From: Candidatus Woesearchaeota archaeon
GTDB lineage: Archaea; Nanobdellota; Nanobdellia; CAYMVK01; CAYYFB01
Direction: 5' to 3'
DNA length: 64,000 nucleotides
Assembly (NCBI GenBank): GCA_964471255.1
Contig: CAYYFB010000002.1
Location: forward strand, 106,283 to 170,282
The notes under the pieces were generated by a model. The model had not been told where the DNA came from and did no database searches. It saw nothing but the letters and a program-made list of their open reading frames with translations. Made by a program: the position numbers and the translations under genes. Of the stretch, positions 43,054-62,620 are shown in pieces; position 1 is the stretch's first letter; every line of letters starts with the position of its first letter.

Positions 43054-43126
43054 GTCTTATCCCTCCTCCCTAAATATTTTTCTCAGCTTGTGCTTGTGAG
43101 CTATCTCCTGTTCCATGGCACACGGC

Positions 43127-43474: not shown

Positions 43475-43842
43475 AACAATCCAATCAATTTTTGATATAA
43501 TTCCTTAGCTTTCTCAACGCTTTCTTTATCAAAAGTTTCTGGGAGGTATCTGCTTGAAATATATGCGCGTTCCAGTTCTGCAATTGTTCTTTTATACTGA
43601 CTAACTACTTCTTTTATATCTCTCTTCTTCATGACTTTTGATAGATCATGCAGAAGTTTTGAGAGTTTATGAGTTTTCTCGAAAAATCCTGTAAGATCAA
43701 GGAGTTTTGCCTTAACTATGAGCTGAATTGCCTGTTCTAAACAGAACATTGCCATTTCATATTGTTTATCCTTTTCGCTTTTCTTAGCTAGCTCAAAGAA
43801 ATATTTCCCCCGCTCCAGAAGAAGCTTTATTTCTTCTCTCAT
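43462..43842 (-). CDS. HEPN domain protein (pair 2)
   Basis: FCLEQAIQLIVKAKL...HKLSKLL...YISSRYLP. Overlaps the MNT gene by 13 nt and the aspS stop by 4 nt. Confidence 0.75.
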   Translation of the reverse strand: MREEIKLLLERGKYFFELAKKSEKDKQYEMAMFCLEQAIQLIVKAKLLDLTGFFEKTHKLSKLLHDLSKVMKKRDIKEVVSQYKRTIAELERAYISSRYLPETFDKESVEKAKELYQKLIGLLWKS

Positions 43843-45143: not shown

Positions 45144-45150
45144 CTAATAA

Positions 45151-46983: not shown

Positions 46984-47056
46984 GTCAATTATTTAGCCTT
47001 ACAATTTTATTCCATTCATAGGAATTGAGGAATAGTTTTGTTCAAACTAATTCATT

Positions 47057-47860
47057 TCAAGTATAGGGTGCTGATATTTTTTCCTTAGCTGAAGGATAAA
47101 TTTTTTCCAAGGATTCATAAAAAACTACAAAAATAGCTTCGACAGCATCTTCACCAAGAACAGAGACGTGTCTTGCGAAAGAGAATAGCAAATCTATCCA
47201 GTCTCCAAGAGACCTAGGTAGATAACTATTGTATGGAATATCTTTTCTTAGAATCCTAGGACCCAGAAATTTGGCTGGCTCGGCTTCTTCATGGGCTTCT
47301 AAGTAATCTTGCAGTTTTATGAAACCAAGCTTAGACAATATATATCTTTCACTTTCAGATCCCTTTTTTACGAAACAAAGCGGAAGATAACCAGGCCTTC
47401 TTCCAGGTGCTGCCCCAACAAAGATCGCAGGTATTACCTCAACCCCCTCCTCAGACAATATATTCAATATTTCCTCTAGTCTATTTCCTATCGGTTTCCA
47501 TCCTTCATCTTTTCCCCATCCTTTCTCACAGAGCTTATAAAGAGAGAAAGGATGAAGGATGAGGAATAAATTTTCTACCAGATCCGTACTTCCAATAGAA
47601 AAACCCCTCTCATTAAGAAGTACATAGGAAGGAATGGCAGAGCATATGTGAAGCACACTCAATCCTAAGCTATTAACCAACGCTTCCATTTCGGGAGGAT
47701 TTGGGGTCTTTCCATTTATCATTTTGTAAAAGATACCCACCAAATTGATGGAAAATTCTATAAAAATTTCTTTGTCAATTTTAAGTTCACTTCTTCTTTG
47801 AGAATATACCTTCTCAGCAATTTCTCTTACCTTAGCTATTTGGGAAGGCTCCAAATACAT
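47057..47860 (-). CDS. Hypothetical protein
   Basis: 267-aa ORF with no motif recognised. Confidence 0.5.
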   Translation of the reverse strand: MYLEPSQIAKVREIAEKVYSQRRSELKIDKEIFIEFSINLVGIFYKMINGKTPNPPEMEALVNSLGLSVLHICSAIPSYVLLNERGFSIGSTDLVENLFLILHPFSLYKLCEKGWGKDEGWKPIGNRLEEILNILSEEGVEVIPAIFVGAAPGRRPGYLPLCFVKKGSESERYILSKLGFIKLQDYLEAHEEAEPAKFLGPRILRKDIPYNSYLPRSLGDWIDLLFSFARHVSVLGEDAVEAIFVVFYESLEKIYPSAKEKISAPYT

Positions 47861-47920
47861 ATATCACTCTTATGGGGTGACAAATATATAAATGAACGAA
47901 GTTAGTTTGGGATAAAATAT

Positions 47921-47993
47921 AGCCCCGTAGTCTAGCGGCCTAGGATGCCGGGCTCTGGACCCGGAGACCGGGGTTCGAATCCCCGCGGGGCTA
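47921..47993 (+). tRNA. tRNA-Gln (CTG)
   Basis: AGCCCCG TA GTCTAGCGGCCTAGGAT G CCGGG CTCTGGA CCCGG AGAC CGGGGTTCGAATCCCCG CGGGGCT A, with the A1-U72 pair typical of archaeal tRNA-Gln. Confidence 0.9.
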
Positions 47994-48020
47994 TATTTCT
48001 AAAGAGTTTCTTAGGAAAGC

Positions 48021-48611
48021 ATGGTGAAGGTTTTTGCAAGGATATTTATTTTTGATAAAAAGGCAATAGAGGAAAATAAAAGAGACATGAAGAGGTGGTT
48101 TAAGGTTATAGAAGAGGATGTAAAATTTGAAATAAAAGAAAACATTCTTGAGGAGGTATACAGTGAACTTCCTAAAGAAGTTAGGAAAATAATAGAGCAA
48201 GAAAAGATAAAAATCTATATTTGCCCACCAATAAGGGAAATTTGCAGGAATTGGGTCTGTGGGAGATGTAAAGGCAAGAAGGTTTTTCTAGAAATAGGAG
48301 TTTGGACTAAAGAAAGAATTCTTTGGAAGTTGTTACATGAAGTTTGCCATGTTTTGCAAGGAAAAGCTGATAAGGATAGATTATCAAGAGAGATTGTTGC
48401 TGGCCATTTTGCTGACCTATTTAGCCTAAGAGTTGTTCGGAAGGTTGAGGAAGAATATAAAGTAAAGATTGGAAGGAATGAAAAAGAAAAGATACTGCAT
48501 TGCTTGCTTAATCTTAGCTTAAATAATGTAAGGGAAATCACAGAAAAAATAAGTAAAATACTTGGAAAGAAAGATATAATTATGATGAGTCCTGCAGCAT
48601 CTGAGAAATGA
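48021..48611 (+). CDS. Hypothetical protein with an HExxH motif (possible zinc metallopeptidase)
   Basis: LLHEVCHVLQG in a 196-aa ORF. Weak. Confidence 0.4.
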   Translation: MVKVFARIFIFDKKAIEENKRDMKRWFKVIEEDVKFEIKENILEEVYSELPKEVRKIIEQEKIKIYICPPIREICRNWVCGRCKGKKVFLEIGVWTKERILWKLLHEVCHVLQGKADKDRLSREIVAGHFADLFSLRVVRKVEEEYKVKIGRNEKEKILHCLLNLSLNNVREITEKISKILGKKDIIMMSPAASEK

Positions 48612-48630
48612 TGAAGCTTAACGGTGCTGA
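48582..48630 (+). ncRNA. Box C/D sRNA candidate
   Basis: C ATGATGA 48582-48588, 12-nt guide GTCCTGCAGCAT, D-prime CTGA 48601-48604, 3-nt linker, C-prime ATGATGA 48608-48614, 12-nt guide AGCTTAACGGTG, D CTGA 48627-48630. Box order and spacing are canonical for archaea. Confidence 0.75.
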
Positions 48631-50219
48631 GAATATTCAATACATGCTTTTGCAAATGCTACAAAAATTGGATGAGGGTTTTCCGGCCTTGATTTAAACT
48701 CAGGATGGAATTGAACCCCCAAGAAGAAGGGATGGTTCCCTAACTCTATTGCCTCAACTCTTTTTCCATCTTCGCTCCAAGCAGAAAAAACTAGACCATT
48801 TTCTCTTAGGATGTCAAAATATTTTGGATTTACTTCCCATCTATGCCTGTGTCTTTCATAAACAAGCTCTTTTTGGTATATTTTATGTAAAAGTGTATTA
48901 GGAACTATTCTTACCGGCATCGACCCTAATCTCATTGTTCCTCCTAGTTTGTCAATATCCCTTTGCTCGGGCATAAGATCAACTACTGGATGAGGAGTCT
49001 CTGGATCAATTTCTGTGGTATTTGCCCGCTCCATACCGCAAACGTTCCTTGCATATTCTATAGCCATTAATTGAAGACCCCAGCACAAGCCGAGGACGGG
49101 TATTTTATTCTTCCTGCAGTACTCGATAAATCTCATCTTTCCTTCCGCAGCCCTTTTTCCAAATCCCCCTGGAATTATGCAACCATCATAGGGAAATTCC
49201 TTTATTTCTTTGTTCTCATAATCTGTGGCTTCTATCAGCGTAATGTCTGGCTTATATCCAAGTTTTAATGTGGTATGTTTTAGAGCCTCAATGATACTAA
49301 GATAAGCATCTGGAACACGAGTATACTTCCCAATTATCGCAATTTTTACGCTCCTTTTACAATTGCTCCATAGCTTACAGAAAGATATAAAATTATCAAG
49401 TTTCCCATCTTTTCTTTTTTCTAAATCAAGTATCTGAAGAATGGGCTCCAATATTCCTTGTCTACTTAGAACAATTGGAACTTTATAGTAAATGTCATAT
49501 GTAGGGACCTGAAAAACATTCTTTATTCCGCACCTAACCCTTATTTTCTCTATAATATATGGAGGAAGAATGATATCAGACCTTACAACCAATATATCAG
49601 GATTTAGACCCAAACTTCTAATTTGGGAAACACTTCTCTGGAGAGGCCTAGTCTTTGGTTCTTTAAGGAACGGAGGAACAAAAACGTACCCCACATGAAT
49701 TATGCAAACTCTATAATCTTCACTATTCTTCATCCTTCTTGCTGCTTCAATCATATACCAATTTTCCCAATCTCCAACACTTCCTCCTACTTCTACAAGA
49801 AATATTTCAAAATTTTTTGAGACTTCCTGTAAATGATCAATCACCCATCTTACGACATGAGGAATAAACTGCACTGTTTTTCCAAGATACTCCCCCTTTC
49901 TTTCCCTTTCAAGTATGCTCAGTAAAACCTTTCCTCCAGTCAAATAAGAAATTTTACCAGAGAGATTTTCATTTAACATTCTTTCATAGTGTCCTAGGTC
50001 CTCATCACACTCGGTCCCATCATCAAGGACATAAACCTCCCCATGTTCATAAGGATTAAGAGTCCCGGCATCTACATTCAAATATCCGTCAAACTTCATT
50101 ACTCCGATCTTAAAACCTGCTTCCTTTAAGATTCTTGCTATGCTTGCTGTTACGGTCCCCTTTCCTACTCCAGAAATTACCCCTCCAGTTACAAATATAA
50201 ACCTCTGGAGAGGGGGCAT
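48618..50219 (-). CDS. pyrG: CTP synthase
   Basis: FIFVTGGVISGVGKG N-terminus, GLCWGLQ GATase nucleophile, GVQFHPEF, 533 aa. Confidence 0.93.
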   Translation of the reverse strand: MPPLQRFIFVTGGVISGVGKGTVTASIARILKEAGFKIGVMKFDGYLNVDAGTLNPYEHGEVYVLDDGTECDEDLGHYERMLNENLSGKISYLTGGKVLLSILERERKGEYLGKTVQFIPHVVRWVIDHLQEVSKNFEIFLVEVGGSVGDWENWYMIEAARRMKNSEDYRVCIIHVGYVFVPPFLKEPKTRPLQRSVSQIRSLGLNPDILVVRSDIILPPYIIEKIRVRCGIKNVFQVPTYDIYYKVPIVLSRQGILEPILQILDLEKRKDGKLDNFISFCKLWSNCKRSVKIAIIGKYTRVPDAYLSIIEALKHTTLKLGYKPDITLIEATDYENKEIKEFPYDGCIIPGGFGKRAAEGKMRFIEYCRKNKIPVLGLCWGLQLMAIEYARNVCGMERANTTEIDPETPHPVVDLMPEQRDIDKLGGTMRLGSMPVRIVPNTLLHKIYQKELVYERHRHRWEVNPKYFDILRENGLVFSAWSEDGKRVEAIELGNHPFFLGVQFHPEFKSRPENPHPIFVAFAKACIEYSQHR

Positions 50220-50291
50220 AAGAGTAATCTCTCTAGACCTTATCTTTCCTTATATTTAAAGGATAATTATTTAAAGGGTAGGGAGAAGTAT

Positions 50292-50540
50292 ATGCCTAAG
50301 GACTTGAAGGAAAAAATAGAGGAGTTAAAAGGAAAAAAGGAAGTAAGTGAAGAGGAATTGGAAGAACTTGTTGATGAAGTAATGGACGCATACGATAATG
50401 AAGTCATTACAAAAGACGAGGCAATAGATCTCCTGAATGAATTAGCTAATTTAGGTTCTGAGTACGCTAGCGAGCTTTTAGAAGATTTAATGGCAGAAGA
50501 GGAAGAAGAAGCTTTTGAAGAAGAAGAGGAAGAAGAATAA
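50292..50540 (+). CDS. Small highly acidic protein
   Basis: 82 aa, about half Glu/Asp, with an EEEEEE tail. Confidence 0.4.
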   Translation: MPKDLKEKIEELKGKKEVSEEELEELVDEVMDAYDNEVITKDEAIDLLNELANLGSEYASELLEDLMAEEEEEAFEEEEEEE

Positions 50541-50544
50541 AAAA

Positions 50545-51030
50545 CTACTCTATCTCCAGTTTTCTTCCTTCTTCCTCTCTAATTTTCTTTTTTGCTCTTA
50601 TTTCAAGAATCCCATTTTCATACTTCGCCCTTGCTGTAGCCGGATCTATTTCTACAGGCAATGGAATTACCCTCCTAAATGACTTTGCAATTCTTTCTTT
50701 TCTATAAAAATCTTCTTCTTTTATTTCCATTTCTTCCTTACATCTTGCTTTTATATCTATCCTGTTTGAGTAAATTCTTAGATCAATGTCCTCCTTTTTT
50801 ACTCCGGGCAATTCTGCTCTAACTACGAGTTCATCTCCAATTTCCCCCACATCGACCCTTGGTACCCTTATCCTTCTTATTGTCTCGATGCCAACTGTAG
50901 GTATTTCCCTCAGAAACGCTTTGGTCATTCTTTCAATTCCTCTTAACATCTTTTCCATTCTTCTCCTAAACAATCGCAAAAATTCGTCTATATCCCAAAA
51001 TTCCTCTTCTAAATCCCAATCCCACTCCAT
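50545..51030 (-). CDS. hsp20: Small heat shock protein (Hsp20/alpha-crystallin)
   Basis: VDVGEIGDELVVRAELPGVKKEDIDLRI...FRRVIPLPVEIDPATARAKYENGILEI. Confidence 0.85.
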   Translation of the reverse strand: MEWDWDLEEEFWDIDEFLRLFRRRMEKMLRGIERMTKAFLREIPTVGIETIRRIRVPRVDVGEIGDELVVRAELPGVKKEDIDLRIYSNRIDIKARCKEEMEIKEEDFYRKERIAKSFRRVIPLPVEIDPATARAKYENGILEIRAKKKIREEEGRKLEIE

Positions 51031-51036
51031 ACTATA

Positions 51037-52230
51037 CTATTTTTTAACCCTTATTTTTATTTTTCCGACAAATTTTCTTTTGCCTATAATCAGAGTCGGT
51101 TTTGGAAGAACAATCTTTCCTTTTAATACCTCAAAACTGAAGGTTATTGTATATCCTAAATAGAGCTCTTCTCCAGCTTCCATTTTTCCTATGTCCCAAA
51201 TTAAGAAAGAATTTTGTCTTTTTGGTTCCAGTACTTCATATTTTTCTATTTTTGCAAAAGAAGGGATTTCATCTATAAGCCTTATGTCATCAAGATCCTT
51301 CAAAGCTTTGAGCTTTATGTTCACATGTACATAAGTTTTTCCTTCTTTTGAATAATAGAAATACTCCTTAAAGACTTTGATAACCGGCGGATAGAAGGCA
51401 TATAATACTAAGCCCACAACTAGAAGAGTTAGGATAGTATTTCCTATATCCAACACCACAAACGAATATTTTTTTCTGGAAAACGCCTGGACCTCAACAG
51501 GTATCTGGGCATATTCACCAACATTTTTTCCACCTTTTATTACAAACCCTTTCTTCTTTATTTCTAAAGAATCTACAAACGGAACATTTCCTCTGTTGTC
51601 TATTTCTATAATATAGTATCTAAAAAAGAAATAATCTTTTTTGATAACTTTTTTAACAACTTCTTTGTATTCCTTTACCTCTATTGCGTAAGAGGAATAG
51701 AAGGGGAAAGGATAGTTTTCAAACTCCACTTTCATTAAAATTGGGTAGTCACCGGCAATCAAATTTTCCAGTTTTAGGCTTTCTTTTCCAAAGAGTACCA
51801 TTGTTCCCATTTGGATACTGAATTTTTTTATCCTGTAATTACAAATTGGTTTTAATACAACCACATTTTTGTCTTGAACATATCTTAACTCACATTTGGG
51901 AACTACGACTCTTTTTGGTTTGCCGATGATAGGGAGAAGGAACATCTTTTCATGAGAATTGTAACGGACATATAAAGGAGTACGATAGCTATGCCCTACT
52001 TTACATGTAACTTCTACCTTCTTTTCTAGAGTTGCAAAAGGCGAAACAGTAAAAGAAGTGGGAGAAATATCTGGACCGTAAATATTAATATTGTAAGTTT
52101 TGTTCTCATTGTTCGTAATCAGCACCTGAAATATTGCTTTATCTCCAACTTCCACAACGTTTTTGATTGGATAAAATGTTATGGTCAGGGAAAACGCCAA
52201 AGGGAATATGAAAGCTAGGATTTTTCTCAT
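51037..52230 (-). CDS. Secreted/membrane protein of unknown function
   Basis: Signal-like MRKILAFIFPLAFSL, an internal TM helix (ILTLLVVGLVLYAFYPPVI) and beta-rich domains. Confidence 0.5.
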   Translation of the reverse strand: MRKILAFIFPLAFSLTITFYPIKNVVEVGDKAIFQVLITNNENKTYNINIYGPDISPTSFTVSPFATLEKKVEVTCKVGHSYRTPLYVRYNSHEKMFLLPIIGKPKRVVVPKCELRYVQDKNVVVLKPICNYRIKKFSIQMGTMVLFGKESLKLENLIAGDYPILMKVEFENYPFPFYSSYAIEVKEYKEVVKKVIKKDYFFFRYYIIEIDNRGNVPFVDSLEIKKKGFVIKGGKNVGEYAQIPVEVQAFSRKKYSFVVLDIGNTILTLLVVGLVLYAFYPPVIKVFKEYFYYSKEGKTYVHVNIKLKALKDLDDIRLIDEIPSFAKIEKYEVLEPKRQNSFLIWDIGKMEAGEELYLGYTITFSFEVLKGKIVLPKPTLIIGKRKFVGKIKIRVKK

Positions 52231-52252
52231 ATTTAAGACTCAGGCTTAGATA

Positions 52253-53224
52253 TTAAAACTTGCTTTTCTTCCACAAAGGAGGATATCTACCTCTTTCCAT
52301 AATGACCCTCTCTATTTTGGCCACAATTCCTCTTTTTTTCTCGAGTATCTCTTGAGAATTCATAAGCGCTCTACCAAATCCAATTAATTCATTTTTCAGT
52401 GTCATTATAGCAACAAAATCATCGGGTTGTATATCTGAACTCAATTTAGCCACTCCAGGCGCTTTAAGAGACGCACCATGGCAGATTGCATCAACACAAG
52501 AGTCCAGTACCCATATCTTTTTAAGATGCTCCACTCCAGCCTCAATAGGTAATAATATTTTTCTTAAATATTTCTCATTTCCTGTTTCTTTCCACACCAT
52601 GAAAGCATCGGCGATATCTTGTAATATTACAGAATCCTCCTCGGAAAAAGGTCCTGATCTTATCCTTCTTAATTCCTGCATATGGGCTCTTGTCCCCATC
52701 TCCTTCCCCATGTCCCAAATCAATTTTCTAATATATACCCCTGCCTCACATTCTATCTCCAAAAGAACATCTCTCCCATCCACCTCCAATACTTTTATTT
52801 TGTATACCCATTTTCTCCTTGGCCTCCTTTTTACAGCTGACTTAAGTGGTGGAACCTGAATTATCGGGCCCTCAAATTTCTTGATTGTTTTAAAGAGTTT
52901 TTCTTCTTTAAAGTCTGAATGAACATGCATTAAAGCAACATAAGTCTTTCTTCCATAAAGAAAAGCTTGTAAGACCTTTGTCCCTTTATTTACTCCTACA
53001 GGCAATACTCCTGTAACTTTGGGATCTAAGGTTCCACCATGTCCTACTTTGTTAACCCCCAGAATTTTCTTTATCCAATAACAAACTTGGTGAGAGGTAG
53101 GTCCTCTTGGTTTATCTAAATTTATTAAGGAGCATTCTAGCAACTCAGAGATAGATCTCTCATATGGGTCTTTTCCCCATTCTGGATTTGTTTCGGCTTC
53201 TTTTTTTACCAATATTTCTGACAT
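52253..53224 (-). CDS. cbf5: H/ACA RNP pseudouridine synthase Cbf5 (TruB family with PUA domain)
   Basis: INLDKPRGPTSHQV, VGHGGTLDPKVTGVLPV, and a C-terminal PUA-like region. Confidence 0.9.
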   Translation of the reverse strand: MSEILVKKEAETNPEWGKDPYERSISELLECSLINLDKPRGPTSHQVCYWIKKILGVNKVGHGGTLDPKVTGVLPVGVNKGTKVLQAFLYGRKTYVALMHVHSDFKEEKLFKTIKKFEGPIIQVPPLKSAVKRRPRRKWVYKIKVLEVDGRDVLLEIECEAGVYIRKLIWDMGKEMGTRAHMQELRRIRSGPFSEEDSVILQDIADAFMVWKETGNEKYLRKILLPIEAGVEHLKKIWVLDSCVDAICHGASLKAPGVAKLSSDIQPDDFVAIMTLKNELIGFGRALMNSQEILEKKRGIVAKIERVIMERGRYPPLWKKSKF

Positions 53225-53232
53225 AAAGAGAT

Positions 53233-54357
53233 ATGAGAATCGGAGTAACTAAAAAACTAGAGACTATATACCATTTAGAACTCCTCAGATCTGTTCTTTG
53301 GGCGAGTTTTGTAATTTTCTTTCCTGTTATACTTTTTCAAAAATGCGGGTTAGGCTGTTCTCTATTATTCTTAATGCTTTCCTACTCTATTTTTCCAATC
53401 TTTTCTCCTTTCTTAGCTTGGTATATTTCCAGAAGGAAGGTTTTGTTCTCTTACTTCCTTTATTTTCTATTAATGTTTATCGCAGTAATAGCCTCTCCTT
53501 TGGTTAAGAAGAATACACTAATGGTTTTATTTTTTATACCCTTCCTAACAGGAATTTCTCTTTCTCTATACTATCTTCCCTTTCATACTTCCTTGGCAAA
53601 ATATGGGAAAGAGAAAATTACTAAGAACGTCTCTTTCCTTCTTTTGATTTCTACATGTATAAATACTTTTTTCCCTGTTTTAACGGCAATCTTTATCAAA
53701 GTTTATGGAATAATGGGTTTTTATATCTTTCTTACATCTTTTATTTTCTTTTTTGCGCTTTTCCTTAGTACAAAATACAAAAGTTACCTTTCAGAAAAAA
53801 TTATTTTTGAAATAAAGATGCCAAAGAAGCGTCACTCTCTTTTTATTTTAGAGGGAGCGGTATGGTCAATTCCTAGGATTCTCCCAATATTTGTTTATCA
53901 ACTAACCGGGAGTGTGATGAAAACAGGTATTATCTTCTCCGCAGCCTCTCTCCTTAGTTCAGTTATTTCATACCTAATACTCCCCTTTCTTAAATTAGAA
54001 AAAAACAGAATAATACGAACGATCTCCTTTTCTCTATCCTATCCAGAGTCTTTTCTAATGATATCAAATTCACCTTTCATTTGTAATTTAAATTATCTTA
54101 TTTCAAGATGTGTACGGTGTTTTTTCTGGCCAATATACTTTGGAAGCATCTGTCTCAGATCTAAAGAAGATAAAACTCTTTCTAATACTTTTTTCTGGAG
54201 AGAGTTGTTTGGAAGATTCGGAGAGTTATTTATCTATATAGTAGGTCTAATTACCTTGAGTTTCAGATGGATGTTTACAATAGCCATCCTTGCCAATTTC
54301 TTAGGAAGCATTGTTATGTATAATACCTTTGCTAAAGAAAGTATGATGAAAGATTGA
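53233..54357 (+). CDS. Polytopic membrane protein (MFS-like)
   Basis: 374 aa with about 10-11 hydrophobic helices. No specific motif. Confidence 0.5.
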   Translation: MRIGVTKKLETIYHLELLRSVLWASFVIFFPVILFQKCGLGCSLLFLMLSYSIFPIFSPFLAWYISRRKVLFSYFLYFLLMFIAVIASPLVKKNTLMVLFFIPFLTGISLSLYYLPFHTSLAKYGKEKITKNVSFLLLISTCINTFFPVLTAIFIKVYGIMGFYIFLTSFIFFFALFLSTKYKSYLSEKIIFEIKMPKKRHSLFILEGAVWSIPRILPIFVYQLTGSVMKTGIIFSAASLLSSVISYLILPFLKLEKNRIIRTISFSLSYPESFLMISNSPFICNLNYLISRCVRCFFWPIYFGSICLRSKEDKTLSNTFFWRELFGRFGELFIYIVGLITLSFRWMFTIAILANFLGSIVMYNTFAKESMMKD

Positions 54358-54388
54358 TCTGAAGTGTGATGAAGATCTTAAGTGCTGA
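54343..54388 (+). ncRNA. Box C/D sRNA candidate
   Basis: C ATGATGA 54343-54349, 9-nt spacer AAGATTGAT, D-prime CTGA 54359-54362, 3-nt linker, C-prime GTGATGA 54366-54372, 12-nt guide AGATCTTAAGTG, D CTGA 54385-54388. Confidence 0.6.
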
Positions 54389-54643
54389 CTATCTCCCAAA
54401 TTCTCTTAAAACTTTTCTCCCTTTTGTTATTTTTAGAATTTTCTCTCGAATAGTTTCAGAGGATTCATCCTCCTTTACGTTTATTTTGTAAGGAAGAGGT
54501 TCTAAATGTTTTCTATTACATCTTCTCCTTTTTACAAAACCATCTATTAACACAAATTTATCATCTATTTCCTTGACTACAACACAAACCCTACCAGCTT
54601 CCCTACCTGCTATTTTAATACATAGCCTTCCTGGTTCTATCAT
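54389..54643 (-). CDS. rpl14e: Ribosomal protein L14e
   Basis: IEPGRLCIKIAGREAGRVCVVVKEIDDKFVLIDG...KRRRCNRKHLEP (KOW-type). Confidence 0.85.
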   Translation of the reverse strand: MIEPGRLCIKIAGREAGRVCVVVKEIDDKFVLIDGFVKRRRCNRKHLEPLPYKINVKEDESSETIREKILKITKGRKVLREFGR

Positions 54644-54652
54644 ATCTATCCC

Positions 54653-55510
54653 TTATTTATATAAATAAGAGGAAAAGTCTGGATCTTTAAAAGGGTTAAA
54701 TCTTTCAGGAAAGGACAGGTAGGCTGAAGGACAAATAAAATAAAGGCTAAGATTCTCTCTCACCTTTACTGGACCTAAGAATGTGAACGAAACATCTATC
54801 CCCATTTGCAAAAATATCCTCTCTATTCTAGAAAGAGCTGCCTGAATCAGCAGAGATGTGGGATTAAAAGGAGAAAGAGATAGATCTAGATAATCTCTGG
54901 ATAAAATGTAGTCAACTATAAGTAAAGGGATGTTCGTTATGCCCTCACTAAAAGAAGATATTTCTTTTATTTCATCTTGCATTTTCCTGAAGATCCTTAG
55001 AGAATAAAAGAGATCTTTACTCCTAAGAAGGGCCTTAGAGAAAATTGCCCCCAATAGGAAAGAAACAGATTCTAAAACAGCGTCTAAAGTATTTTCTTCC
55101 TCCCCCTTGCTCTCTCCAGATAAAATAATTTTTCCTTCTTTGGCTAAGTAGAGAAGGGAAGTGAAATTAAGAAGAGTAGCACCAATTCCTAAGTAACTAT
55201 TACCTTGAGGAACTAGAAGAATTGTTATCCCCTTGTTCTTTTTGCCTTTATCGCTAAAAATATAATTGGGAGAGATTGCCGCTCCAGTAAAGAGAGATGT
55301 TATTTCTCTTGGAATATCTTTTTTAGGGTTTAATATGGAAAGGAGATGATTGTATTTTTCTGTCCTAGCAAAATATTCTTCTTCAGATACAATTTCTACT
55401 CTAACAGAAGAGTTAAAGCGAATGCTTCTTATTATTTCTCCTAAACATGGAGCTATGTTCCTTACAAATTCCTCCGATACTTCCTCACTATAGATGATGA
55501 AGTTATTCAT
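54653..55510 (-). CDS. Hypothetical protein inserted between cmk and rpl14e
   Basis: 285-aa ORF with no motif recognised. Confidence 0.45.
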   Translation of the reverse strand: MNNFIIYSEEVSEEFVRNIAPCLGEIIRSIRFNSSVRVEIVSEEEYFARTEKYNHLLSILNPKKDIPREITSLFTGAAISPNYIFSDKGKKNKGITILLVPQGNSYLGIGATLLNFTSLLYLAKEGKIILSGESKGEEENTLDAVLESVSFLLGAIFSKALLRSKDLFYSLRIFRKMQDEIKEISSFSEGITNIPLLIVDYILSRDYLDLSLSPFNPTSLLIQAALSRIERIFLQMGIDVSFTFLGPVKVRENLSLYFICPSAYLSFPERFNPFKDPDFSSYLYK

Positions 55511-56054
55511 AGAAGAACCAATATCTCACAATCTCTTCAGCTATTTTTACCATTTTTTTCTTTCCTACTCTAGAAGTATTGAAATAAAAATCGATCTGGA
55601 GCGAGGGAATATCAAAAATATCTATGTGATAAAGGTAAATATACCTTTCCCTGGTTATGTTGTTTTTTCTTTGAACAAAATCATACGCGTCTTTTAAAGG
55701 AATTCTTTCCCTTTTTGCAATTCTTTCTGCCGCCTGCTCCAGATTACAATGAACATAGATAATCAAATCAATCTTTTCAAGCAAAAAAGGTAAAATCCAA
55801 GAGTCTATTACCAATCTCTCTTTTTCTTTGCAGATTTTTATAAGTTCTTTATCAATTTCCCTCTCTATCCTGGGGTTCTCTTTAAGGAAATCTAGCCACT
55901 CAAAAAATTTCTCCTTATCATTAAATCCATATTCAAAGCTTTTCTTCTTAATAAAATCTCCACATCTAAGGAGCTCGAGATTGAATACTTTTGCCAAATG
56001 GGACGCTATGGTTGACTTGCCCGCTCCAGAAGTTCCAACAACGCCTATCTTCAT
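55503..56054 (-). CDS. cmk: Archaeal-type cytidylate kinase / small P-loop NMP kinase
   Basis: MKIGVVGTSGAGKSTIASHLA. The position next to rpl14e and cbf5 matches the conserved archaeal cmk-rpl14e-cbf5 neighbourhood. Confidence 0.6.
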   Translation of the reverse strand: MKIGVVGTSGAGKSTIASHLAKVFNLELLRCGDFIKKKSFEYGFNDKEKFFEWLDFLKENPRIEREIDKELIKICKEKERLVIDSWILPFLLEKIDLIIYVHCNLEQAAERIAKRERIPLKDAYDFVQRKNNITRERYIYLYHIDIFDIPSLQIDFYFNTSRVGKKKMVKIAEEIVRYWFFYE

Positions 56055-56175
56055 AGCTAGATATACTGTTACTCCTAAAAAGTTTACTTAACTAAAAGCA
56101 TTTCTGGAGCGCGATGGAAATCTTTATCATAGACAAAACTAAAGAGTGATTACCAATTTAAAGCCCTTTATATAT

Positions 56176-56204
56176 CCCCCCACCCCTTAGTTTCCAGTGG
56201 AAAA
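56176..56204 (-). promoter_or_regulatory. ORB element 1 (dyad plus G-string, read on the minus strand)
   Basis: The minus strand reads TTTTCCACTGGAAACTAAGGGGTGGGGGG. This matches the archaeal ORB core TCCA(G/C)TGGAAA followed by a G-tract. Confidence 0.7.
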
Positions 56205-56332
56205 GAATGGAATGTGTTGAGAAGCAAGGAACAGAAAATGTATATAAAATAAGGAAATAGTAATATATAGAACTATTTACTACTAATTATAAATGAATAT
56301 TTAAAGACCTGCAATACTATACGCGAGTAGTG

Positions 56333-56354
56333 TTTCCATAGGAAATGAAGGGGT
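56333..56354 (+). promoter_or_regulatory. ORB element 2 (variant dyad plus G-string, read on the plus strand)
   Basis: TTTCCATAGGAAATGAAGGGGT, inverted relative to ORB 1 across the AT-rich segment. Confidence 0.6.
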
Positions 56355-56440
56355 GCCTCATATTTTTAAAGGGTTTTTATATGATGTTACTATTTGTTAA
56401 TTACTTTTTTAAATAAAAAAGCAAGAGCTCAGAGATAATC

Positions 56441-56471
56441 TCCCTAATTTGATTTCGTTTTCCACTGGAAA
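56441..56471 (-). promoter_or_regulatory. ORB element 3
   Basis: The minus strand reads TTTCCAGTGGAAAACGAAATCAAATTAGGGAG. Confidence 0.6.
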
Positions 56472-56717
56472 TTTTATTACTTTCAAGAGACAAAATTGCA
56501 AGTGGAAATTTTAATATTTATAAGTAGTAAAATCCGCTCCAGAATCTGGATAAGTAATTTATAAAGGCAACAAGCAAGGATGAATTGAGATATTCTAAGA
56601 CCGCCCAAGGCCTTTAAATGCCGGAAAACCTGGAGCGGCAAGAAAATTCCTATTTCAAATTATGAAATAAAAGGTTTTTTATAAGAAAGAATTAAATCCA
56701 TTATAGCTATTAATATT

Positions 56718-57911
56718 GTGAAACTTACAGACTTCTTTAAGCAAGCAAAAGAAGGAAAAAGGATATTTAGAAACAAAGATGTTCTAACTGATAGATATTT
56801 TCCTGATAAAATAATGCATAGGGATGAACAAATAAAGGCAATTGCTGAAATACTCTCTCCAGCGCTAAGACTGGAGCGGCCAAGCAATCTTTTTATTTAT
56901 GGGAAGCCTGGAACTGGGAAGACTCTTGTTATAAAGTATGTTACAAAAGAAATGGAAAAAGTGGCAAAAGAAGATAACGTACCTCTTGATATTATCTACG
57001 TAAACTGTAAAATGAAGAAAGTTGCAGATACTGAGTACAGATTACTCGCTCATTTAATAAGATGCTTTGGTAAAAGGGCTCCATTGCTTGGTATCCCTAC
57101 CTACGAACTTTATAGGAATCTTTTTTCTATACTTGATGAGAAAGAGAGGCTTGCAATACTAATTTTTGATGAGATTGATGAGCTTGTAAAAAAGACTGGT
57201 GATAATATTCTTTATAACTTTACAAGGATCAATGAAAACCTGGAGCGGGCCAAGGTATCTATAGTTGGAATTTCAAATGACATTGTATTTGTGGAAAACC
57301 TAGATCCTAGAGTAAAGAGCTCTTTAGGAGAGGAGGAAGTAATATTTCCCCCTTATGATGCTAATCAATTAAGAGACATTCTTTGGCAAAGAGCAAAGCT
57401 AGCATTTGAGCCAGAGGCTATTTCGGATGCTGTAATATCAAAATGCGCCGCATATGCTGCAAGGGAGCATGGAGATGCCAGGAAAGCATTAGACCTACTT
57501 AGGGTTGCTGGGGAGATTGCAGAGAGAGAAGGAAGAAGCAAGGTTCTGGAGCAGGATGTCGATAAAGCATTGGAGAAACTGGAGCGGGATAGGATAATAG
57601 AAATTGTGAAAGTCCAGCCAATTCAGTCTAAGCTAATTTTATTGGCAATAATAAATGCGATAGAAAAGAAGGGAGAACCTATAGAAGTAGGGGATGTTTA
57701 CGATGAATATGAGAGAATAACTGAAAAATTCAAGATTAGACCCATCTCTCAAAGAAGGGCATCGGATCTTATTTCTGAATGGGACATGTTTGGAGTAATA
57801 AATGCAAGAACTGTAAGCTTTGGTAAATATGGAAGAAAGAAAGAAATAAAATTGGCAATTCCAAATTCCATAAAAACAAAAATTATTGAAGTAATAGAGA
57901 ACTCAATTTAA
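56718..57911 (+). CDS. cdc6: Orc1/Cdc6 replication initiator
   Basis: GTG start. RIFRNKDVLTDRYFPDKIMHRDEQI, Walker A YGKPGTGKT, Walker B LIFDEIDEL, sensor and GDARKALDLLRVAGEIAE, and a C-terminal winged helix (ISQRRASDLISEWDMFGVINAR). Confidence 0.93.
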   Translation: MKLTDFFKQAKEGKRIFRNKDVLTDRYFPDKIMHRDEQIKAIAEILSPALRLERPSNLFIYGKPGTGKTLVIKYVTKEMEKVAKEDNVPLDIIYVNCKMKKVADTEYRLLAHLIRCFGKRAPLLGIPTYELYRNLFSILDEKERLAILIFDEIDELVKKTGDNILYNFTRINENLERAKVSIVGISNDIVFVENLDPRVKSSLGEEEVIFPPYDANQLRDILWQRAKLAFEPEAISDAVISKCAAYAAREHGDARKALDLLRVAGEIAEREGRSKVLEQDVDKALEKLERDRIIEIVKVQPIQSKLILLAIINAIEKKGEPIEVGDVYDEYERITEKFKIRPISQRRASDLISEWDMFGVINARTVSFGKYGRKKEIKLAIPNSIKTKIIEVIENSI

Positions 57912-57916
57912 TTCTT

Positions 57917-57955
57917 CCGCTCCAGAAAATGAATTACTAAAAAGTTCTGGAGTGG
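57917..57955. terminator. Hairpin made of two inverted motif copies between the convergent cdc6 and MNT genes
   Basis: CCGCTCCAGAA (57917-57927) and TTCTGGAGTGG (57945-57955) give an 11-bp stem with one G-T pair and a 17-nt loop. It starts 6 nt after the cdc6 stop. Confidence 0.4.
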
Positions 57956-57961
57956 CGGTCT

Positions 57962-58285
57962 TTATAATTTTTTAGCGTATTTGAGAATTTCTTTATAAAA
58001 GCTCAATTTCTTTGCTTTCTCAAATTCTTCCTCTGTCAATACTATTGGTTCTATCGGTAATTTTGTAAGAGAAAGGACGTATGCGATTCTTTCAATAGCC
58101 CTCATCTTTAGATCCCAGATTATGAGAAGATCTATATCAGAACCTTCATGAAAATCTCCTCTTGCAAAAGATCCAAATAAGTATACTTCTTTTGCTCCCA
58201 TTTTCTTCAATTTCTTCGCGAATTTTTTTATTTCATCAAATATTTCCTTACTTCTTTCAATATCGATTCTGACAATTTTATGCAT
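57962..58285 (-). CDS. Minimal nucleotidyltransferase (MNT, pair 3)
   Basis: VYLFGSFARGDFHEGSDIDLLIIW. Confidence 0.8.
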   Translation of the reverse strand: MHKIVRIDIERSKEIFDEIKKFAKKLKKMGAKEVYLFGSFARGDFHEGSDIDLLIIWDLKMRAIERIAYVLSLTKLPIEPIVLTEEEFEKAKKLSFYKEILKYAKKL

Positions 58286-58623
58286 AATTCAGCATCCTCT
58301 TTTGTAAAATATTTTGATGGGGGGAGATTTGAAATTATTCCATTAGGATATCTCGATGCTATGTACATTGCGTCTAAGAGATAAACTTCCCTTTCAAAAG
58401 ATTTAAGAGAGGGGATAAACCTTTCACATTCCTCTATTAAATCTCTTATAGAATGAGTTAATATTGCCCTTTTTCCATGCTTTATCAATACAGCCTTAAG
58501 GGCTTTCTCAGAGGCTTGTTGAGCCTGAAAGCATGCCCAATTATATCTTTTCATTCTTAAGCTATCTTTTGCGGCTTCCAGATCATATTCCGCATCTTCA
58601 AACCATCTTCTCCACTCTTCCAC
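58228..58623 (-). CDS. HEPN domain protein (pair 3)
   Basis: WFEDAEYDLEAAK...ACFQAQQASEKALKAVL...HSIRDL...YIASRYPNG. Confidence 0.78.
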   Translation of the reverse strand: MEEWRRWFEDAEYDLEAAKDSLRMKRYNWACFQAQQASEKALKAVLIKHGKRAILTHSIRDLIEECERFIPSLKSFEREVYLLDAMYIASRYPNGIISNLPPSKYFTKEDAELCIKLSESILKEVRKYLMK

Positions 58624-59107
58624 AAGTCTTAAGTATTGGAAACCTTTTAAATTTTCTTTTCTGATTATTCTTCCCTTACTAGCTCTTACATAGAAGAAAA
58701 AGCCATATCATTTCTGAAGTAGCTAGTAGACCCTCTGGAGTGGCTTTTTGTATTTAAGACATTGTCTACTCTACTCTTAGAATTCTTTGGAAAGGTTCAT
58801 ATTTCGAATTATTTTTGTGGAAGGCCGCTCCAGAATTCGGATAAAGGCCGAGTAGGTGAAAATTTTTAACTTTAAGAACCATGGTTTAATTTTGAGCATG
58901 TTCAATAGGACCTCCGTTAAGTGATAAAAGTGAGTATAGCAATGTTAATAAAAACACTGGCAGAACCAGAAAGAAGATATTACTTACTCCAAGAAACGCT
59001 TGAAGCAATATTAGAAAATAAAAAAAATAATTAATATTCCTGAGTTATACAGAGAGTACCAAGAAAAATGTATTAGAAAAGGAATTATCCCTCTAGATTA
59101 TAATGGT

Positions 59108-59587: not shown

Positions 59588-59764
59588 AACAGAAGCCCAG
59601 TTTTCTGGTATTGGTTTTTTTAAATGATGCTCCTACAGATACTATTACTTTACTTGCTTTACTGGGCCAACCTGGTTTTTCTTTCATTACCTACAAATCC
59701 AGGTTGTGCCAGAGTCCAAGCGAGTCTAGAGTAATTGTTTAAAAAGGTGAAGGAATTTTTTGGT

Positions 59765-62620
59765 ATGAATAAATCAATGGGGGAATTTCTGGATAAGGTT
59801 AGGAATATAGAGGCAAAGTGGAGCGAGATATGGATTAAGGAAAAAGAATTTGAGGCTGATGCCAAGCCTGGAGCACCAAAATATTTTATAACAGTCCCCT
59901 ATCCCTATGTTTCTGGGCCACCACACATTGGACATGGAAGATCTTATGTTGTGGGGGATGTAATAGCAAGATATAAGAGACTTAAGGGGTACCATGTCCT
60001 ATATCCCATTGCTTTTCATGTAAGTGGGCTACCTATTGCTTCTATAGCTGATGGAATCTCGAGAGGAGATAAAGGGATGTTTGATAGGATGATGTTCTAT
60101 GTACTTCCGTTTGAGAAGGATGAAGAAAAAGCCAAAGAGATTATAGAAAGCTTTAAGGATCCAATGAATGTTGCTCTATATTTCATAAAAATATGGGAAA
60201 AAGATCTTAAGAATTTTGGATTTTCTCTTGACTGGAGGAGAAAATTTCATACTGCAGAGCCAATTTATAATAAATTTGTTGAATGGCAGTATTATAAGCT
60301 TAAAGAGAAAGGAGTTTTGAAGAAAGGAGAATATTATGTCCTTTATTGTCTAATGCACAAACACCCAGCTGGAGAGGATGATATTCAGGACGGGGATGTT
60401 AACCCGGTAAAAAAAGTTGAATGGGTTGGAGTTAAGTTTAAATTCGAGGATGGATGGATAATAGCCGGAACTTTAAGGCCTGAGACAATCTTTGGGATAA
60501 CAAATGTATGGGCGAAGCCAGAAGCAAAGTACTGTAAAATTAAAGTTAATGAGGAAGTTTGGTATGTTTCCAGGGAGGCTGCGGAGAAGTTTTCATATCA
60601 ATTTGATAATGTTTCTATTCTAGAAGAAATAGATGGTTCTTACTTTATAGGGAAATGGTGTGTAGACCCACTAGGTAATAAACAAATAATACTTCCAGCA
60701 AGATTTATAGATCCAGACATAGGAACGGGCTTTGTTTATTCCGAACCATCCGATGCTCCAATAGATTGGGTAGCATTAATGGAATTGAAGGCCGCTCCAG
60801 AAAAAGTTAGGGAATTTGGAATAGATCCAAGAATATTAGAAAAAATAGAGCCAAAGAAGATTATTGATTTGCCTGGAGTGGAGGGACACCATAGCGAAGT
60901 TCTAATAAAGAAGTATAATGTAAAAGATCAATTGGACCCAAGATTAGAACAAATTTCTGAAGAGGCGTATAAGGAGCAATATTATAATGGAATAATGATT
61001 CCAGAAGGAGTAAAAGGGATGAAAGTATCTGAAGCTAAAGAATATGTAAAAGAGAAGCTATTGAGGGAAAATAAAGCAATAATTTTCTACGAAACATCAA
61101 GAAAAGCCGTCTGTAGAGCTAAGGGAAAAATAATTGTGGCTAAAGTAAAGGATCAATGGTTTATAGATTATTCTCCTGAATGGATTAAGGAACTAGGGAG
61201 GAAATGGTTAGATAAGAATATTGTTTATCCAGAGAAGTATAGGAAGCTATTTTATGATACAATTGATTGGTTAGAGAAAAGACCCTGCACCAGAACTAGG
61301 GGCCTTGGGACAAGGTTTCCATTTGACAAAAAATGGGTAATTGAATCCCTATCTGATTCTACCATCTATATGGCCTTTTATACCATTGCTCACTTAATCC
61401 GCTCCAGAAATATTGACCCATCTCAATTAATACCTGAAGTGTTTGACTATGTATTCCTGGGTAAGGGGGATGTTAAGGAAGTATCTAAAAGTTCAGGAAT
61501 ACCTGAAGAAACTCTAGAAGAGATGAGAAAGGAATTCCTATATTGGTATCCATTAGATCATAGGCATACTGGAGTGGCCCACATAACTAATCATCTTTCT
61601 TTCTTCATCTTACATCACTGCATCATATTCCCAGAAGAGTTGTGGCCAAAGCGGATTACTTTGCATGAAATGGTCTTAAGTGAAGGGGAAAAAATGTCAA
61701 AATCAAAAGGAAATGTGGTGCTACTTAAAGATATTGTAGAAAGGTATTCAATAGACCTTTATAGGCTATATGCAATAGGAACAGCAGATTTAGGGGCACC
61801 AATGGATTGGAGAGAAAGGGATGTTGCAGCATTAACAGGAAGACTACATAGATTTTTCCAAGTATGTGAAAAAGCAATTGCCGCTCCAGAAAGGGAGAAA
61901 GATAGGTTAGATGAGTGGCTCCTATCATCCTTTTATAAAAGATTGAAAGAAGCCTCCGCTCTAATAGAGTCTTTTAGGTTTAGGGAATATGTTCAAAGTC
62001 TATTTTATGGTGTATTAAGTGATATAAATAGATATTTATTGAGAAAAGGAACCGAAGATTATTATGGAGTAAAATTAATCCTTAAAGATTGGCTAATTTC
62101 CCTCTCTCCAGTCATTCCCCATATTTGTGAGGAATTTCTGGAGCGGATGGGAGAGAAAAGAATAAAAGATCAGAAATGGCCTGAGATTAGGGAAATAAAA
62201 GAAGAAATATTAAGAGAAGAAGAGTTCATTGAACAAGTGAAAGAGCAAGTAATAAAAATATGTTCTAGGCTTAAAAAACCGATTGAAGAGAAAGGAATAA
62301 AGGTTGTTAGGATAGTTATTCCAAAAGAAGAAAAGTACAAACTGTGGGAGGAAATAGAAAAAGTTTCTGAAAAAGACATTGGAAGAATTTTGGCTGAAAA
62401 AGGATTTTATGATCTAATAAGGCAAGCATTGAGGCAAAAAAGGGAAAAATTAATATGGTTTAACAGATCTAAGGAAAAAGAATTATTGGAGGATTCCATG
62501 AAATACTTTTCTTTCATATTTGGAGCACCATTTGAGCTAGTAATGGAGGAAGAAATACCTGAAGAAATTGCTAAAATTAGCGCTCCAGGTCAGCCAGCAA
62601 TTTTGGTTGAGTTTAAGTAA
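59765..62620 (+). CDS. leuS: Leucyl-tRNA synthetase, archaeal type
   Basis: PYPYVSGPPHIGHGRSY (HIGH), KMSKSKGN (KMSKS), a CP1 editing insertion, about 950 aa. Start moved to the first ATG (MNKSMGEFLDKVRNIEAKW); the track ORF begins at TTG 59735. Confidence 0.92.
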   Translation: MNKSMGEFLDKVRNIEAKWSEIWIKEKEFEADAKPGAPKYFITVPYPYVSGPPHIGHGRSYVVGDVIARYKRLKGYHVLYPIAFHVSGLPIASIADGISRGDKGMFDRMMFYVLPFEKDEEKAKEIIESFKDPMNVALYFIKIWEKDLKNFGFSLDWRRKFHTAEPIYNKFVEWQYYKLKEKGVLKKGEYYVLYCLMHKHPAGEDDIQDGDVNPVKKVEWVGVKFKFEDGWIIAGTLRPETIFGITNVWAKPEAKYCKIKVNEEVWYVSREAAEKFSYQFDNVSILEEIDGSYFIGKWCVDPLGNKQIILPARFIDPDIGTGFVYSEPSDAPIDWVALMELKAAPEKVREFGIDPRILEKIEPKKIIDLPGVEGHHSEVLIKKYNVKDQLDPRLEQISEEAYKEQYYNGIMIPEGVKGMKVSEAKEYVKEKLLRENKAIIFYETSRKAVCRAKGKIIVAKVKDQWFIDYSPEWIKELGRKWLDKNIVYPEKYRKLFYDTIDWLEKRPCTRTRGLGTRFPFDKKWVIESLSDSTIYMAFYTIAHLIRSRNIDPSQLIPEVFDYVFLGKGDVKEVSKSSGIPEETLEEMRKEFLYWYPLDHRHTGVAHITNHLSFFILHHCIIFPEELWPKRITLHEMVLSEGEKMSKSKGNVVLLKDIVERYSIDLYRLYAIGTADLGAPMDWRERDVAALTGRLHRFFQVCEKAIAAPEREKDRLDEWLLSSFYKRLKEASALIESFRFREYVQSLFYGVLSDINRYLLRKGTEDYYGVKLILKDWLISLSPVIPHICEEFLERMGEKRIKDQKWPEIREIKEEILREEEFIEQVKEQVIKICSRLKKPIEEKGIKVVRIVIPKEEKYKLWEEIEKVSEKDIGRILAEKGFYDLIRQALRQKREKLIWFNRSKEKELLEDSMKYFSFIFGAPFELVMEEEIPEEIAKISAPGQPAILVEFK

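Follow-up and report, generated by a model that had tools for sequence, protein, structure and literature searches.

To our knowledge, hyper-abundant short words that take precedence over codon usage and even over the encoded protein have been established only for a few groups of bacteria: the uptake signal sequences and DNA uptake sequences (USS/DUS) of competent Pasteurellaceae and Neisseriaceae, and the highly iterated palindrome HIP1 of cyanobacteria. The word described here, CTGGAGCGG (reverse complement CCGCTCCAG), was found in a 64,000-nucleotide stretch of the genome of a Candidatus Woesearchaeota archaeon (assembly GCA_964471255.1, contig CAYYFB010000002.1, positions 106,283 to 170,282 of the forward strand). 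This stretch, hereafter the window, carries the orc1/cdc6 gene and, directly upstream of it, a predicted replication origin (oriC). In this DPANN archaeon, CTGGAGCGG is a hyper-abundant word, specific to the lineage, that is kept intact in some tracts of the window and lost from others.

USS/DUS double the frequencies of the tripeptides they encode, occupy poorly conserved residues and are missing from recently acquired genes (Findlay and Redfield, 2009, PMC2817400). HIP1 is distributed non-uniformly on a 10–90 kb scale, and a role in chromosome structure has been proposed for it (Xu et al., PMC5861425). Its single-nucleotide deviations are biased towards the edge of the word, outside the methyltransferase core, and a methyltransferase-linked model has been put forward (Elhai, PMC4390886).

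CTGGAGCGG shares features with both systems, and it matches USS/DUS closely. Like USS/DUS, it is a non-palindromic word of 9–10-mer size with a weak flank preference, is present on both strands at about one copy per kb where it is maintained, and is hundreds-fold over-represented. Its copies lie mostly in genes, in whichever frame the protein tolerates, inflate the encoded tripeptides and fall where conservation is poor; the word is lineage-specific, absent from relatives and largely missing from likely mobile cassettes, and one inverted pair of copies forms a hairpin just past a gene, here cdc6. Like HIP1, it is hyper-abundant within and between genes (15- to 300-fold for HIP1, at least 40-fold for this word), is spread unevenly over distances of tens of kb, and shows single-nucleotide deviations that gather at the margin of a core that a methyltransferase could plausibly recognise; as for HIP1, the mechanism can be debated between biased repair and selection for chromosome structure. 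Unlike HIP1, CTGGAGCGG does not equal its own reverse complement and occurs in a single narrow lineage instead of a whole phylum.

Identity and Abundance of the Word

The initial annotation of the window had listed 15 sites of a motif within 3.6 kb (55279-58833) centred on the origin and cdc6. The word was read off these 15 coordinates, all of which carry CTGGAGCGG or CCGCTCCAG, nine exactly and six with one mismatch. In total, the window (35% guanine plus cytosine, GC) contained 33 exact copies, 13 on the plus strand and 20 on the minus strand, against 0.07 expected and a maximum of one in dinucleotide-preserving shuffles. An unbiased k-mer scan returned CTGGAGCGG as the top outlier 9-mer of the window. 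Nested counts set the length of the word: CTGGAG occurred 150 times, CTGGAGC 72 times, CTGGAGCG 47 times and CTGGAGCGG 33 times. The consensus was WW-CTGGAGCG-G/C, with a weak flank preference (WW...V), and the flanks of the copies were unrelated past ~2 nt.

Variation was restricted to positions 7–9 of the word; the CTGGAG core was near-invariant across the window, with positions 1–6 altered in one variant of the motif-rich tracts. The commonest variants were C7>T and G8>A, both products of CpG transitions. The G9>C variant occurred 10 times, always within the rich tracts. CTGGAG is presumably a Type IIS/IIG restriction-modification specificity, which we take as an unconfirmed lead towards methylation only.

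A second contig of the same organism was reached through its GluRS ortholog and was available as 21.7 kb in ENA and JGI assemblies (L208 and L209) and from Logan sample SRR7051321 (L210), the same sample as the Logan contigs that cover parts of the window. L208 contained seven exact copies against 0.02 expected, and CCGCTCCAG was again the top 9-mer.

Motif-Rich Tracts and Deserts

The exact copies were strongly clustered, as the initial annotation had held. Under a uniform model, the longest gap between exact copies (22,826 bp) had P = 1.5e-5, the variance-to-mean ratio of 4-kb bins (3.0) had P = 3e-4, and the nine exact copies within 3.6 kb had P = 0.007. Three motif-rich tracts, with a density of ~1.04 exact copies/kb, alternated with two deserts. 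Rich tract 1 (1308..18383) held 14 exact copies, with dense patches in a giant open reading frame (ORF; 10613-11704) and in the diphthine synthase and RtcA genes (16650-18383). Both patches had been pointed out before, the second as lying mostly in rtcA; its copies were split about evenly between the two genes. Rich tract 2 (41201..45722) held six exact copies in CorA, HEPN, AspRS and GatE genes. Rich tract 3 reached beyond the cdc6/oriC region into a class-I aminoacyl-tRNA synthetase gene (Pfam tRNA-synt_1; 59735..62620, plus strand), which carried exact copies at 60792, 61399, 61881 and 62138.

A careful scan found no exact copy between 18383 and 41201 or between 45722 and 55279, in agreement with the earlier statement. 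In desert 1 (18384..41200; 22.8 kb) none of the 11 codon-compatible sites, that is, positions at which the amino-acid sequence allows the word in any of six frames, carried it; CpG-transition variants were present, for example at 19402, 30737, 31598, 38106, 40173, 40269 and 40722. In desert 2 (45723..55278; 9.6 kb) none of four codon-compatible sites carried the word, and variants were present at 45918, 46117, 46180, 52450 and 52531.

GC content was flat along the window (0.30–0.385), so composition offers no explanation for the deserts; GC content was thereby ruled out as their cause. When gene order was permuted, the longest motif-free run (22 genes, or 19.9 kb) had P = 0.0007–0.005, and a runs test gave P = 0.003, which shows that the mosaic follows regions of the DNA and not individual genes. 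Desert 1 carried ABCE1, L7Ae and thymidylate kinase genes, plus a permease, TrkAH, a laminin-G protein, AAA_14, GNAT and hypotheticals, and desert 2 carried pyrG, Hsp20 and Cbf5. The view that the deserts hold core genes therefore stands for ABCE1, L7Ae, thymidylate kinase, pyrG and cbf5, but accessory genes are mixed in and the rich tracts hold core genes too (AspRS, GatE, the class-I aminoacyl-tRNA synthetase, Cdc6, RtcA, a MeaB-like GTPase, a GPN-type GTPase, CorA and others). The deserts represent no functional gene class.

The absence of the motif from the deserts, as first described, applied to exact copies but not to their derivatives. CTGGAG followed by a single-transition derivative of CGG, i.e., CTGGAG(TG/CA)G, occurred 12 times in the deserts against 1.0 expected, and intact CGG never followed the core there. 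The rich tracts held 33 intact and 18 single-transition copies, and all 43 copies of CTGGAGCG[G/C] lay outside the deserts. CTGGAG cores before unrelated triplets were ~2.5-fold enriched, equally in rich tracts and deserts. General CpG depletion was no worse in the deserts than in the rest of the window.

It is very unlikely that the deserts are foreign imports from a motif-free lineage or chimeric assembly joins, with the clustering marking native versus non-native DNA. Small motif-free stretches do match likely mobile cassettes (PIN, HEPN/nucleotidyltransferase, integrase), the USS of bacteria are missing from recently acquired genes (PMC2817400), and the first principal component of tetranucleotide usage weakly tracked the zones (rho = -0.41). 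That component, however, was driven by AAAA/AAGA-type words (Lys/Glu/Arg-rich), so the difference between zones reflects protein composition. Codon usage did not differ between deserts and rich tracts (P = 0.11), and codon-usage or tetranucleotide differences as a sign of foreign deserts were weak and accounted for by amino-acid composition. The deserts contained 1.6 CTGGAG cores/kb versus ~0.5/kb in the sister clade and in a control DPANN genome. Above all, since the sister clade is without the word, the decayed copies in the deserts indicate that this DNA has long been resident in a word-bearing genome; with the flat GC content and similar codon usage, they bear out the initial view that the deserts are not obviously foreign. 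Chimeric joins are further opposed by two Logan contigs assembled independently from SRR7051321 (L001 and L002), which match the window segments they cover both in gene order and, without any difference, in the proteins encoded, although neither spans a desert boundary. They are opposed as well by two independent assemblies of the second contig, from ENA and from JGI, which differ by 1 nt in 21.7 kb.

Overall, the deserts are native DNA whose intact copies are not maintained. The window is a kb-scale mosaic in which maintained tracts fill almost every permissive position and lapsed tracts keep only copies stripped of their CpG.

Further features of the window were recorded. The giant ORF (10083-13517, minus strand; 1144 aa) had no Pfam match even at E = 0.05; four exact and several variant copies lay within 10613-11704, and their flanks were unrelated, so they are not internal repeats. 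Toxin-antitoxin modules were unusually dense for 64 kb, with one PIN module and three HEPN/nucleotidyltransferase pairs (4562-4999, 7013-7725, 43127-43842 and 57962-58623). These and the integrase cassettes were mostly without the word; the exception was the HEPN/nucleotidyltransferase pair at 43127-43842, where a variant occurred at 43189 and an exact copy at 43810. An ORF with a Methyltransf_32 domain (5335-5985, minus strand; E = 1.5e-6) lay amid the toxin-antitoxin cassettes and was the only methyltransferase-like gene in the window.

Reading Frames, Codons and Protein Sequence

Coding DNA contained 29 of the 33 exact copies. Eight were read in sense frame 0 (L-E-R), 11 in sense frame 1 (x-G-A-x) and 10 in antisense frames, while the remaining four were intergenic. 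Eight of 19 LER tripeptides were spelled CTG-GAG-CGG, although the shares of these codons in their families were 7% (CTG), 35% (GAG) and 2.6% (CGG). Genes of the rich tracts contained 26 copies versus 0.66 expected from a within-gene shuffle of synonymous codons, an excess of ~40-fold. Within the rich tracts, 29 of 38 codon-compatible positions carried the word, and word-compatible contexts per kb were ~2.5 times as frequent as in the deserts.

The word has also imposed conservative changes on the protein sequences of Cdc6 and GluRS. In Cdc6, compared with seven homologs, the replacements K>R, QN>ER and I>L lay exactly beneath copies. The three exact in-frame copies encoded RLER (xxEK or xxEL in the others), NLER (NLQN, NLNK, ELKN or ELKR in the others) and KLER (KIER or KIEK in the others), each at one or more residues altered in this lineage alone; a fourth copy, encoding L-E-Q, lay in a variable stretch. 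The GluRS encoded on the second contig reads PGAA at a site that is GGEV, GGFV, VGEV or GGEA in the sister clade. The word is thus written into DNA whatever the strand, reading frame or coding status, and its price to the organism consists of rare codons and conservative amino-acid replacements.

These results make it extremely improbable that the word arose as a side effect of protein motifs, of codon usage or of a small mobile element. Certain copies do spell widespread protein motifs, the P-loop GxGK among them, and a few intergenic copies have weak extended similarity (72–80% over 25 nt). Such an origin is hard to square with copies in all frames and on both strands, spelled with rare codons and far above the synonymous-shuffle null; most of them lie in conserved genes, and the same proteins of relatives are without the word. 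Mobile elements of the miniature inverted-repeat transposable element (MITE) or REP-doublet (REPIN) kind were rejected on the unrelated flanks, the coding position of most copies, and a pair spacing and orientation that were not special.

Within ABCE1, identical short strings (tttgtCTGGAGGGGagtta) occurred at 20976-21009 and 21705-21738, 729 bp apart, each after the same LER codons (CTAGAGAGA). The twin strings presumably reflect the two homologous ABC domains of this protein.

Distribution Among Relatives

By its Cdc6 homologs, the window belongs to a metagenome-assembled genome (MAG) of DPANN type (Woesearchaeota/Nanoarchaeota-type), and after the identical protein the nearest Cdc6 relatives had 66–67% identity. 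Four sister-clade genomes (L083/L084, L085, L206 and L207; 33 kb; 35–40% GC) contained no copies. In these 33 kb, CTGGAG occurred at 0.48/kb and never preceded CGG or its transition derivatives. Eighty cdc6 loci from GTDB, among whose representatives the source species is absent (best match 54%), showed no enrichment: AT-rich loci had no copies and a few GC-rich loci had one or two chance copies. None of the 80 loci had a comparable hyper-abundant word, and the top word in Thermococcus was the origin recognition box (ORB) itself. A search with SRP54 for a third region of the genome gave top matches in the sister clade only (L206 and L207), and one candidate proved to come from another MAG. The latter, a DPANN MAG from a sibling sample of the same environment (L211), served as a negative control and also had no copies. 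The absence of the word from the sister clade and the same-site DPANN MAG and its lack of enrichment in the GTDB loci mark it as a recent feature of this lineage only.

Viral contigs were scanned for motif pairs. The 120 matches were all of 41–68% GC and contained just the two matched copies, and were put down to chance or an unrelated conserved gene.

The cdc6/oriC Region

The oriC core (56181..56508) comprises four ORB-type dyads at 56191, 56333, 56459 and 56496, two of them with an extended G-string and in inverted orientation. These ORBs (TTTCCASTGGAAA; 56191-56508) lie directly upstream of cdc6, and among them are all exact matches to an ORB that the window contains; ORB-like dyads occurred at the equivalent place in one sister genome. 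Judged from these features, the origin call at 56181-56508 is sound. CTGGAGCGG differs from the ORB dyad and falls outside the oriC core, and is therefore not an ORB or mini-ORB.

The first copy past desert 2 was exact (55279..55287, minus strand) and lay in ORF 54653-55510 in sense frame 1, encoding TGAA. The adjacent AAA_18 kinase gene (55503-56054) contained one-mismatch copies at 55596..55604 (CTGGAGCGA, plus strand) and 55734..55742 (CTGGAGCAG, minus strand; a CpG-transition variant) and an exact copy at 56021..56029 (minus strand). The last of these encodes the Walker-A P-loop GTSGAGKS of the kinase, so seven and not, as first counted, eight of the 15 sites are non-coding. An intergenic variant (CTGGAGCGC, 56104..56112, plus strand) followed 50 bp upstream of the kinase start. 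Beyond the ORB cluster, exact intergenic copies were located at 56534..56542 (minus strand), 26 bp right of the last ORB, and at 56630..56638 (plus strand), 80 bp upstream of the cdc6 start. The ORB cluster is thus flanked by 56021/56104 on its left and 56534/56630 on its right.

The orc1/cdc6 gene (56718..57911, plus strand) contained the exact L-E-R copies at 56871, 57240 and 57579 and the one-mismatch L-E-Q copy at 57546. Six nucleotides past its stop codon, an inverted pair (57917..57955), made up of exact CCGCTCCAG at 57917 and CTGGAGTGG at 57947, formed a hairpin with an 11-bp stem (-17.3 kcal/mol, z = -4.0). Downstream lay a HEPN/nucleotidyltransferase toxin-antitoxin cassette (57962..58623, minus strand) with no copies inside, framed by direct repeats TCTGGAGTGGC at 57946 and 58734 and by outer CCGCTCCAGAA copies at 57917 and 58825. 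A further intergenic pair (58735..58833) consisted of the variant CTGGAGTGG at 58735 (plus strand) and exact CCGCTCCAG at 58825 (minus strand).

Three spacers flank cdc6 and the origin (56055-56717, 57912-57961 and 58624-59107), and all four exact intergenic copies of the window, and seven of its nine intergenic family sites, were located in them. The spacers account for 1,197 of the 8,151 intergenic bp of the window, and the chance of four out of four was ~5e-4 by post hoc arithmetic. This figure is tempered by an exact intergenic copy at L208:4618, the only one seen that is not near an origin. There, an CCACTCCAG variant and an exact CTGGAGCGG (L208 4528-4626) lay 90 bp apart, on either side of the stop codon that ends a short Phage_integrase ORF (4034-4615).

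Inverted pairs of intergenic copies spaced 83–96 bp apart had been pointed out initially. They did not stand out under strand permutation (P = 0.11), and 20 direct and 19 inverted pairs were found within 250 bp.

Hidden RNA genes in the origin spacers were ruled out: an Rfam/tRNA scan found no RNA family or tRNA in them, and the five tRNAs of the window were all elsewhere. Two intron-containing tRNA genes, at 4399-4535 and 63395-63523 (both plus strand), were found by Rfam and missed by ARAGORN. Synteny with the sister clade broke at cdc6, which in that clade is followed by a Lactamase_B-GluRS-PTH2 block (L083 3384-5711; L085 10307-12626). In this organism, the block was located on the second contig (L208 9370-12075) and was itself motif-dense, and the breakpoint in the window (57912-59107) was occupied by the HEPN/nucleotidyltransferase cassette.

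Position Relative to the Origin

The initial annotation had placed the densest clustering around oriC and cdc6, had likened the word to parS/ParB-type or condensin-loading sites and had favoured a role in chromosome organisation over a purely uniform uptake tag. On this reading, the word would be an origin-associated binding site of the parS/ParB, SegB or condensin-loading type that organises or segregates the chromosome. The cdc6/oriC patch did have the highest exact-copy count in any 3.6-kb span. When the 33 copies were randomised inside the rich tracts, however, nine or more in 3.6 kb arose with P = 0.25 for exact copies and P = 0.10 for the motif family, and at the 1.5-kb scale the rtcA/diphthine-synthase and giant-ORF patches held nine family sites each and the origin eight. 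Patches of equal density lay 38–46 kb away from the ORB cluster. No orientation switch was found at the origin, with eight plus and 14 minus copies on its left and five plus and six minus copies on its right (Fisher P = 0.71; family P = 0.41).

The second contig extended this result. Neither cdc6 nor an ORB cluster was found on L208, where five of the seven copies lay inside 3.5 kb (8866-12378) and none lay across an exosome/SBDS/proteasome operon. All five compatible sites in one contiguous block were used, and one of six elsewhere. Copies on a contig lacking the origin suggest that the word, present on at least two contigs, is spread through the genome and is patchy throughout. Several tracts are maintained, of which the cdc6/oriC patch is one, and the origin is not the organising centre.

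An origin-associated site is therefore unlikely to account for the word, even with copies on both sides of the ORB cluster, all exact intergenic copies of the window in the cdc6-flanking spacers, and a motif-dense Lactamase_B-GluRS-PTH2 block that adjoins cdc6 in the sister clade, though it stands on another contig here. With parS/ParB centromeres, SMC-loading sites and SegB sites the word has in common that some copies are non-coding and bracket the origin. It differs from them in dozens of copies per 64 kb, mostly coding, in not being palindromic, and in reaching the same density far from the origin as well as on the second contig; parS sites are few and palindromic. No ParB-, SegB- or SMC-type gene was found among the window ORFs. 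The origin cluster should not be taken for a parS-like centromere.

Two other kinds of words were considered. Chi and the polar words KOPS (FtsK orienting polar sequences) and AIMS (architecture imparting sequences) are likewise short, over-represented and scattered over genes; CTGGAGCGG is far more over-represented and shows no strand skew or switch at the origin, and a polar word of this type was ruled out. In Escherichia coli, GATC is a genome-wide word additionally concentrated at oriC and the initiator gene dnaA, where it serves Dam/SeqA sequestration. CTGGAGCGG is similarly concentrated in non-coding origin DNA and around the initiator gene, although GATC is palindromic, only four bases long and served by a known methylase and a known reader, and the enrichment in the origin spacers here is based on four to seven sites. 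The sole origin-specific trait left is the presence of copies in the non-coding cdc6/oriC spacers, together with the hairpin at the cdc6 end.

The initial observation was thus real and is partly confirmed, but needs to be re-centred away from the origin. Its interpretation is partly supported: the patchiness argues against a simple, evenly spread tag, while proximity to the origin was not the organising variable. A broader role in chromosome structure, as proposed for HIP1 (PMC5861425), may still apply.

Discussion

These data show that a process or selection acting on DNA places the word wherever the sequence permits it, in some tracts and not in others, and that CpG transitions wear it away. 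The best reading of these data, to which we assign a probability of roughly one half, is that CTGGAGCGG is a USS/DUS- or HIP1-like word that is regionally maintained by a copy-favouring bias acting on DNA and is eroded at CpG. Such a bias would continually re-create the word, either because conspecific DNA that carries the word is preferentially taken up and recombined, as with the USS/DUS of bacteria, or through word-directed biased repair, while CpG transitions erode it. The bias would work on fragments of several kb and would require the word to be present. Under this requirement, tracts that lose their copies would leave the process and decay, which would give an all-or-none mosaic.

A narrower and more tentative possibility is that CTGGAGCGG is the first archaeal self-DNA word of the uptake-sequence type, a tag that biases uptake or recombination of own-species DNA. 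The host is an archaeon, unlike the bacteria with USS/DUS, and uptake bias is here a candidate process only. No competence gene was seen in the 64-kb window or on L208, and a search of the unannotated window ORFs for a reader protein gave none even at E = 0.05. The nearest precedent is the competence documented in ultrasmall episymbiotic bacteria, the Saccharibacteria (PMC10633639). If the proposal is true, the rich tracts would be DNA that is still exchanged and homogenised, the deserts would be out of exchange and decaying at CpG, and the word could have found a secondary use in the oriC/cdc6 spacers.

The main rival, a HIP1-like explanation, appears rather doubtful. CTGGAG would here be a methyltransferase target, and a methylation-dependent bias of mismatch repair, or selection on the nucleoid or its domains, would create and maintain the extended word, with the tracts as chromosomal domains. 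Variants limited to positions 7–9 beside a clean CTGGAG core are as found in HIP1 (PMC4390886), the two CpG-transition products are the commonest variants, as expected if that cytosine is methylated, and the patchiness on a 5–23 kb scale resembles the 10–90 kb non-uniformity of HIP1 (PMC5861425). The word, however, is not a palindrome, as all HIPs are, and no DNA methyltransferase of fitting specificity was seen in the window, where the small Methyltransf_32 ORF is at most a candidate for the cognate enzyme. Moreover, a genome-wide repair bias alone leaves the regional deserts unexplained.

Several points weigh against the preferred reading, regional maintenance by a copy-favouring bias. The whole analysis is based on ~86 kb of genome. 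The borders of rich tracts and deserts were drawn from the motif itself, which brings some circularity into the Fisher tests on codon-compatible sites; none affects the gap test, the permutation of gene order, the test of decay variants or the replication on L208. USS are rather evenly spread, whereas the spacing of CTGGAGCGG is uneven, and within the rich tracts it was no more even than random (coefficient of variation 1.20 versus 0.97). A bimodal mosaic is likewise atypical of USS/DUS: the word occurs on two contigs, yet native deserts of 10–23 kb, core genes included, hold decayed and no intact copies. No competence gene, methyltransferase/Vsr-type gene or other candidate reader gene was found among the window ORFs. 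In the literature, we found neither a description of an uptake-type word in archaea nor evidence of competence in DPANN, and searches for the word itself returned incidental primer matches only. Finally, a copy-favouring bias leaves unexplained why the exact intergenic copies of the window are confined to the cdc6/oriC spacers.

An archaeal case in an ultrasmall DPANN organism would imply sequence-specific DNA exchange, or a word-directed repair or methylation system. The mosaic, with its decayed copies in the deserts, constitutes a rare natural record of a word kept in some tracts and lost in others. With such a record, the questions of drive versus selection, and of recombination versus chromosome structure, become testable from metagenomes alone.

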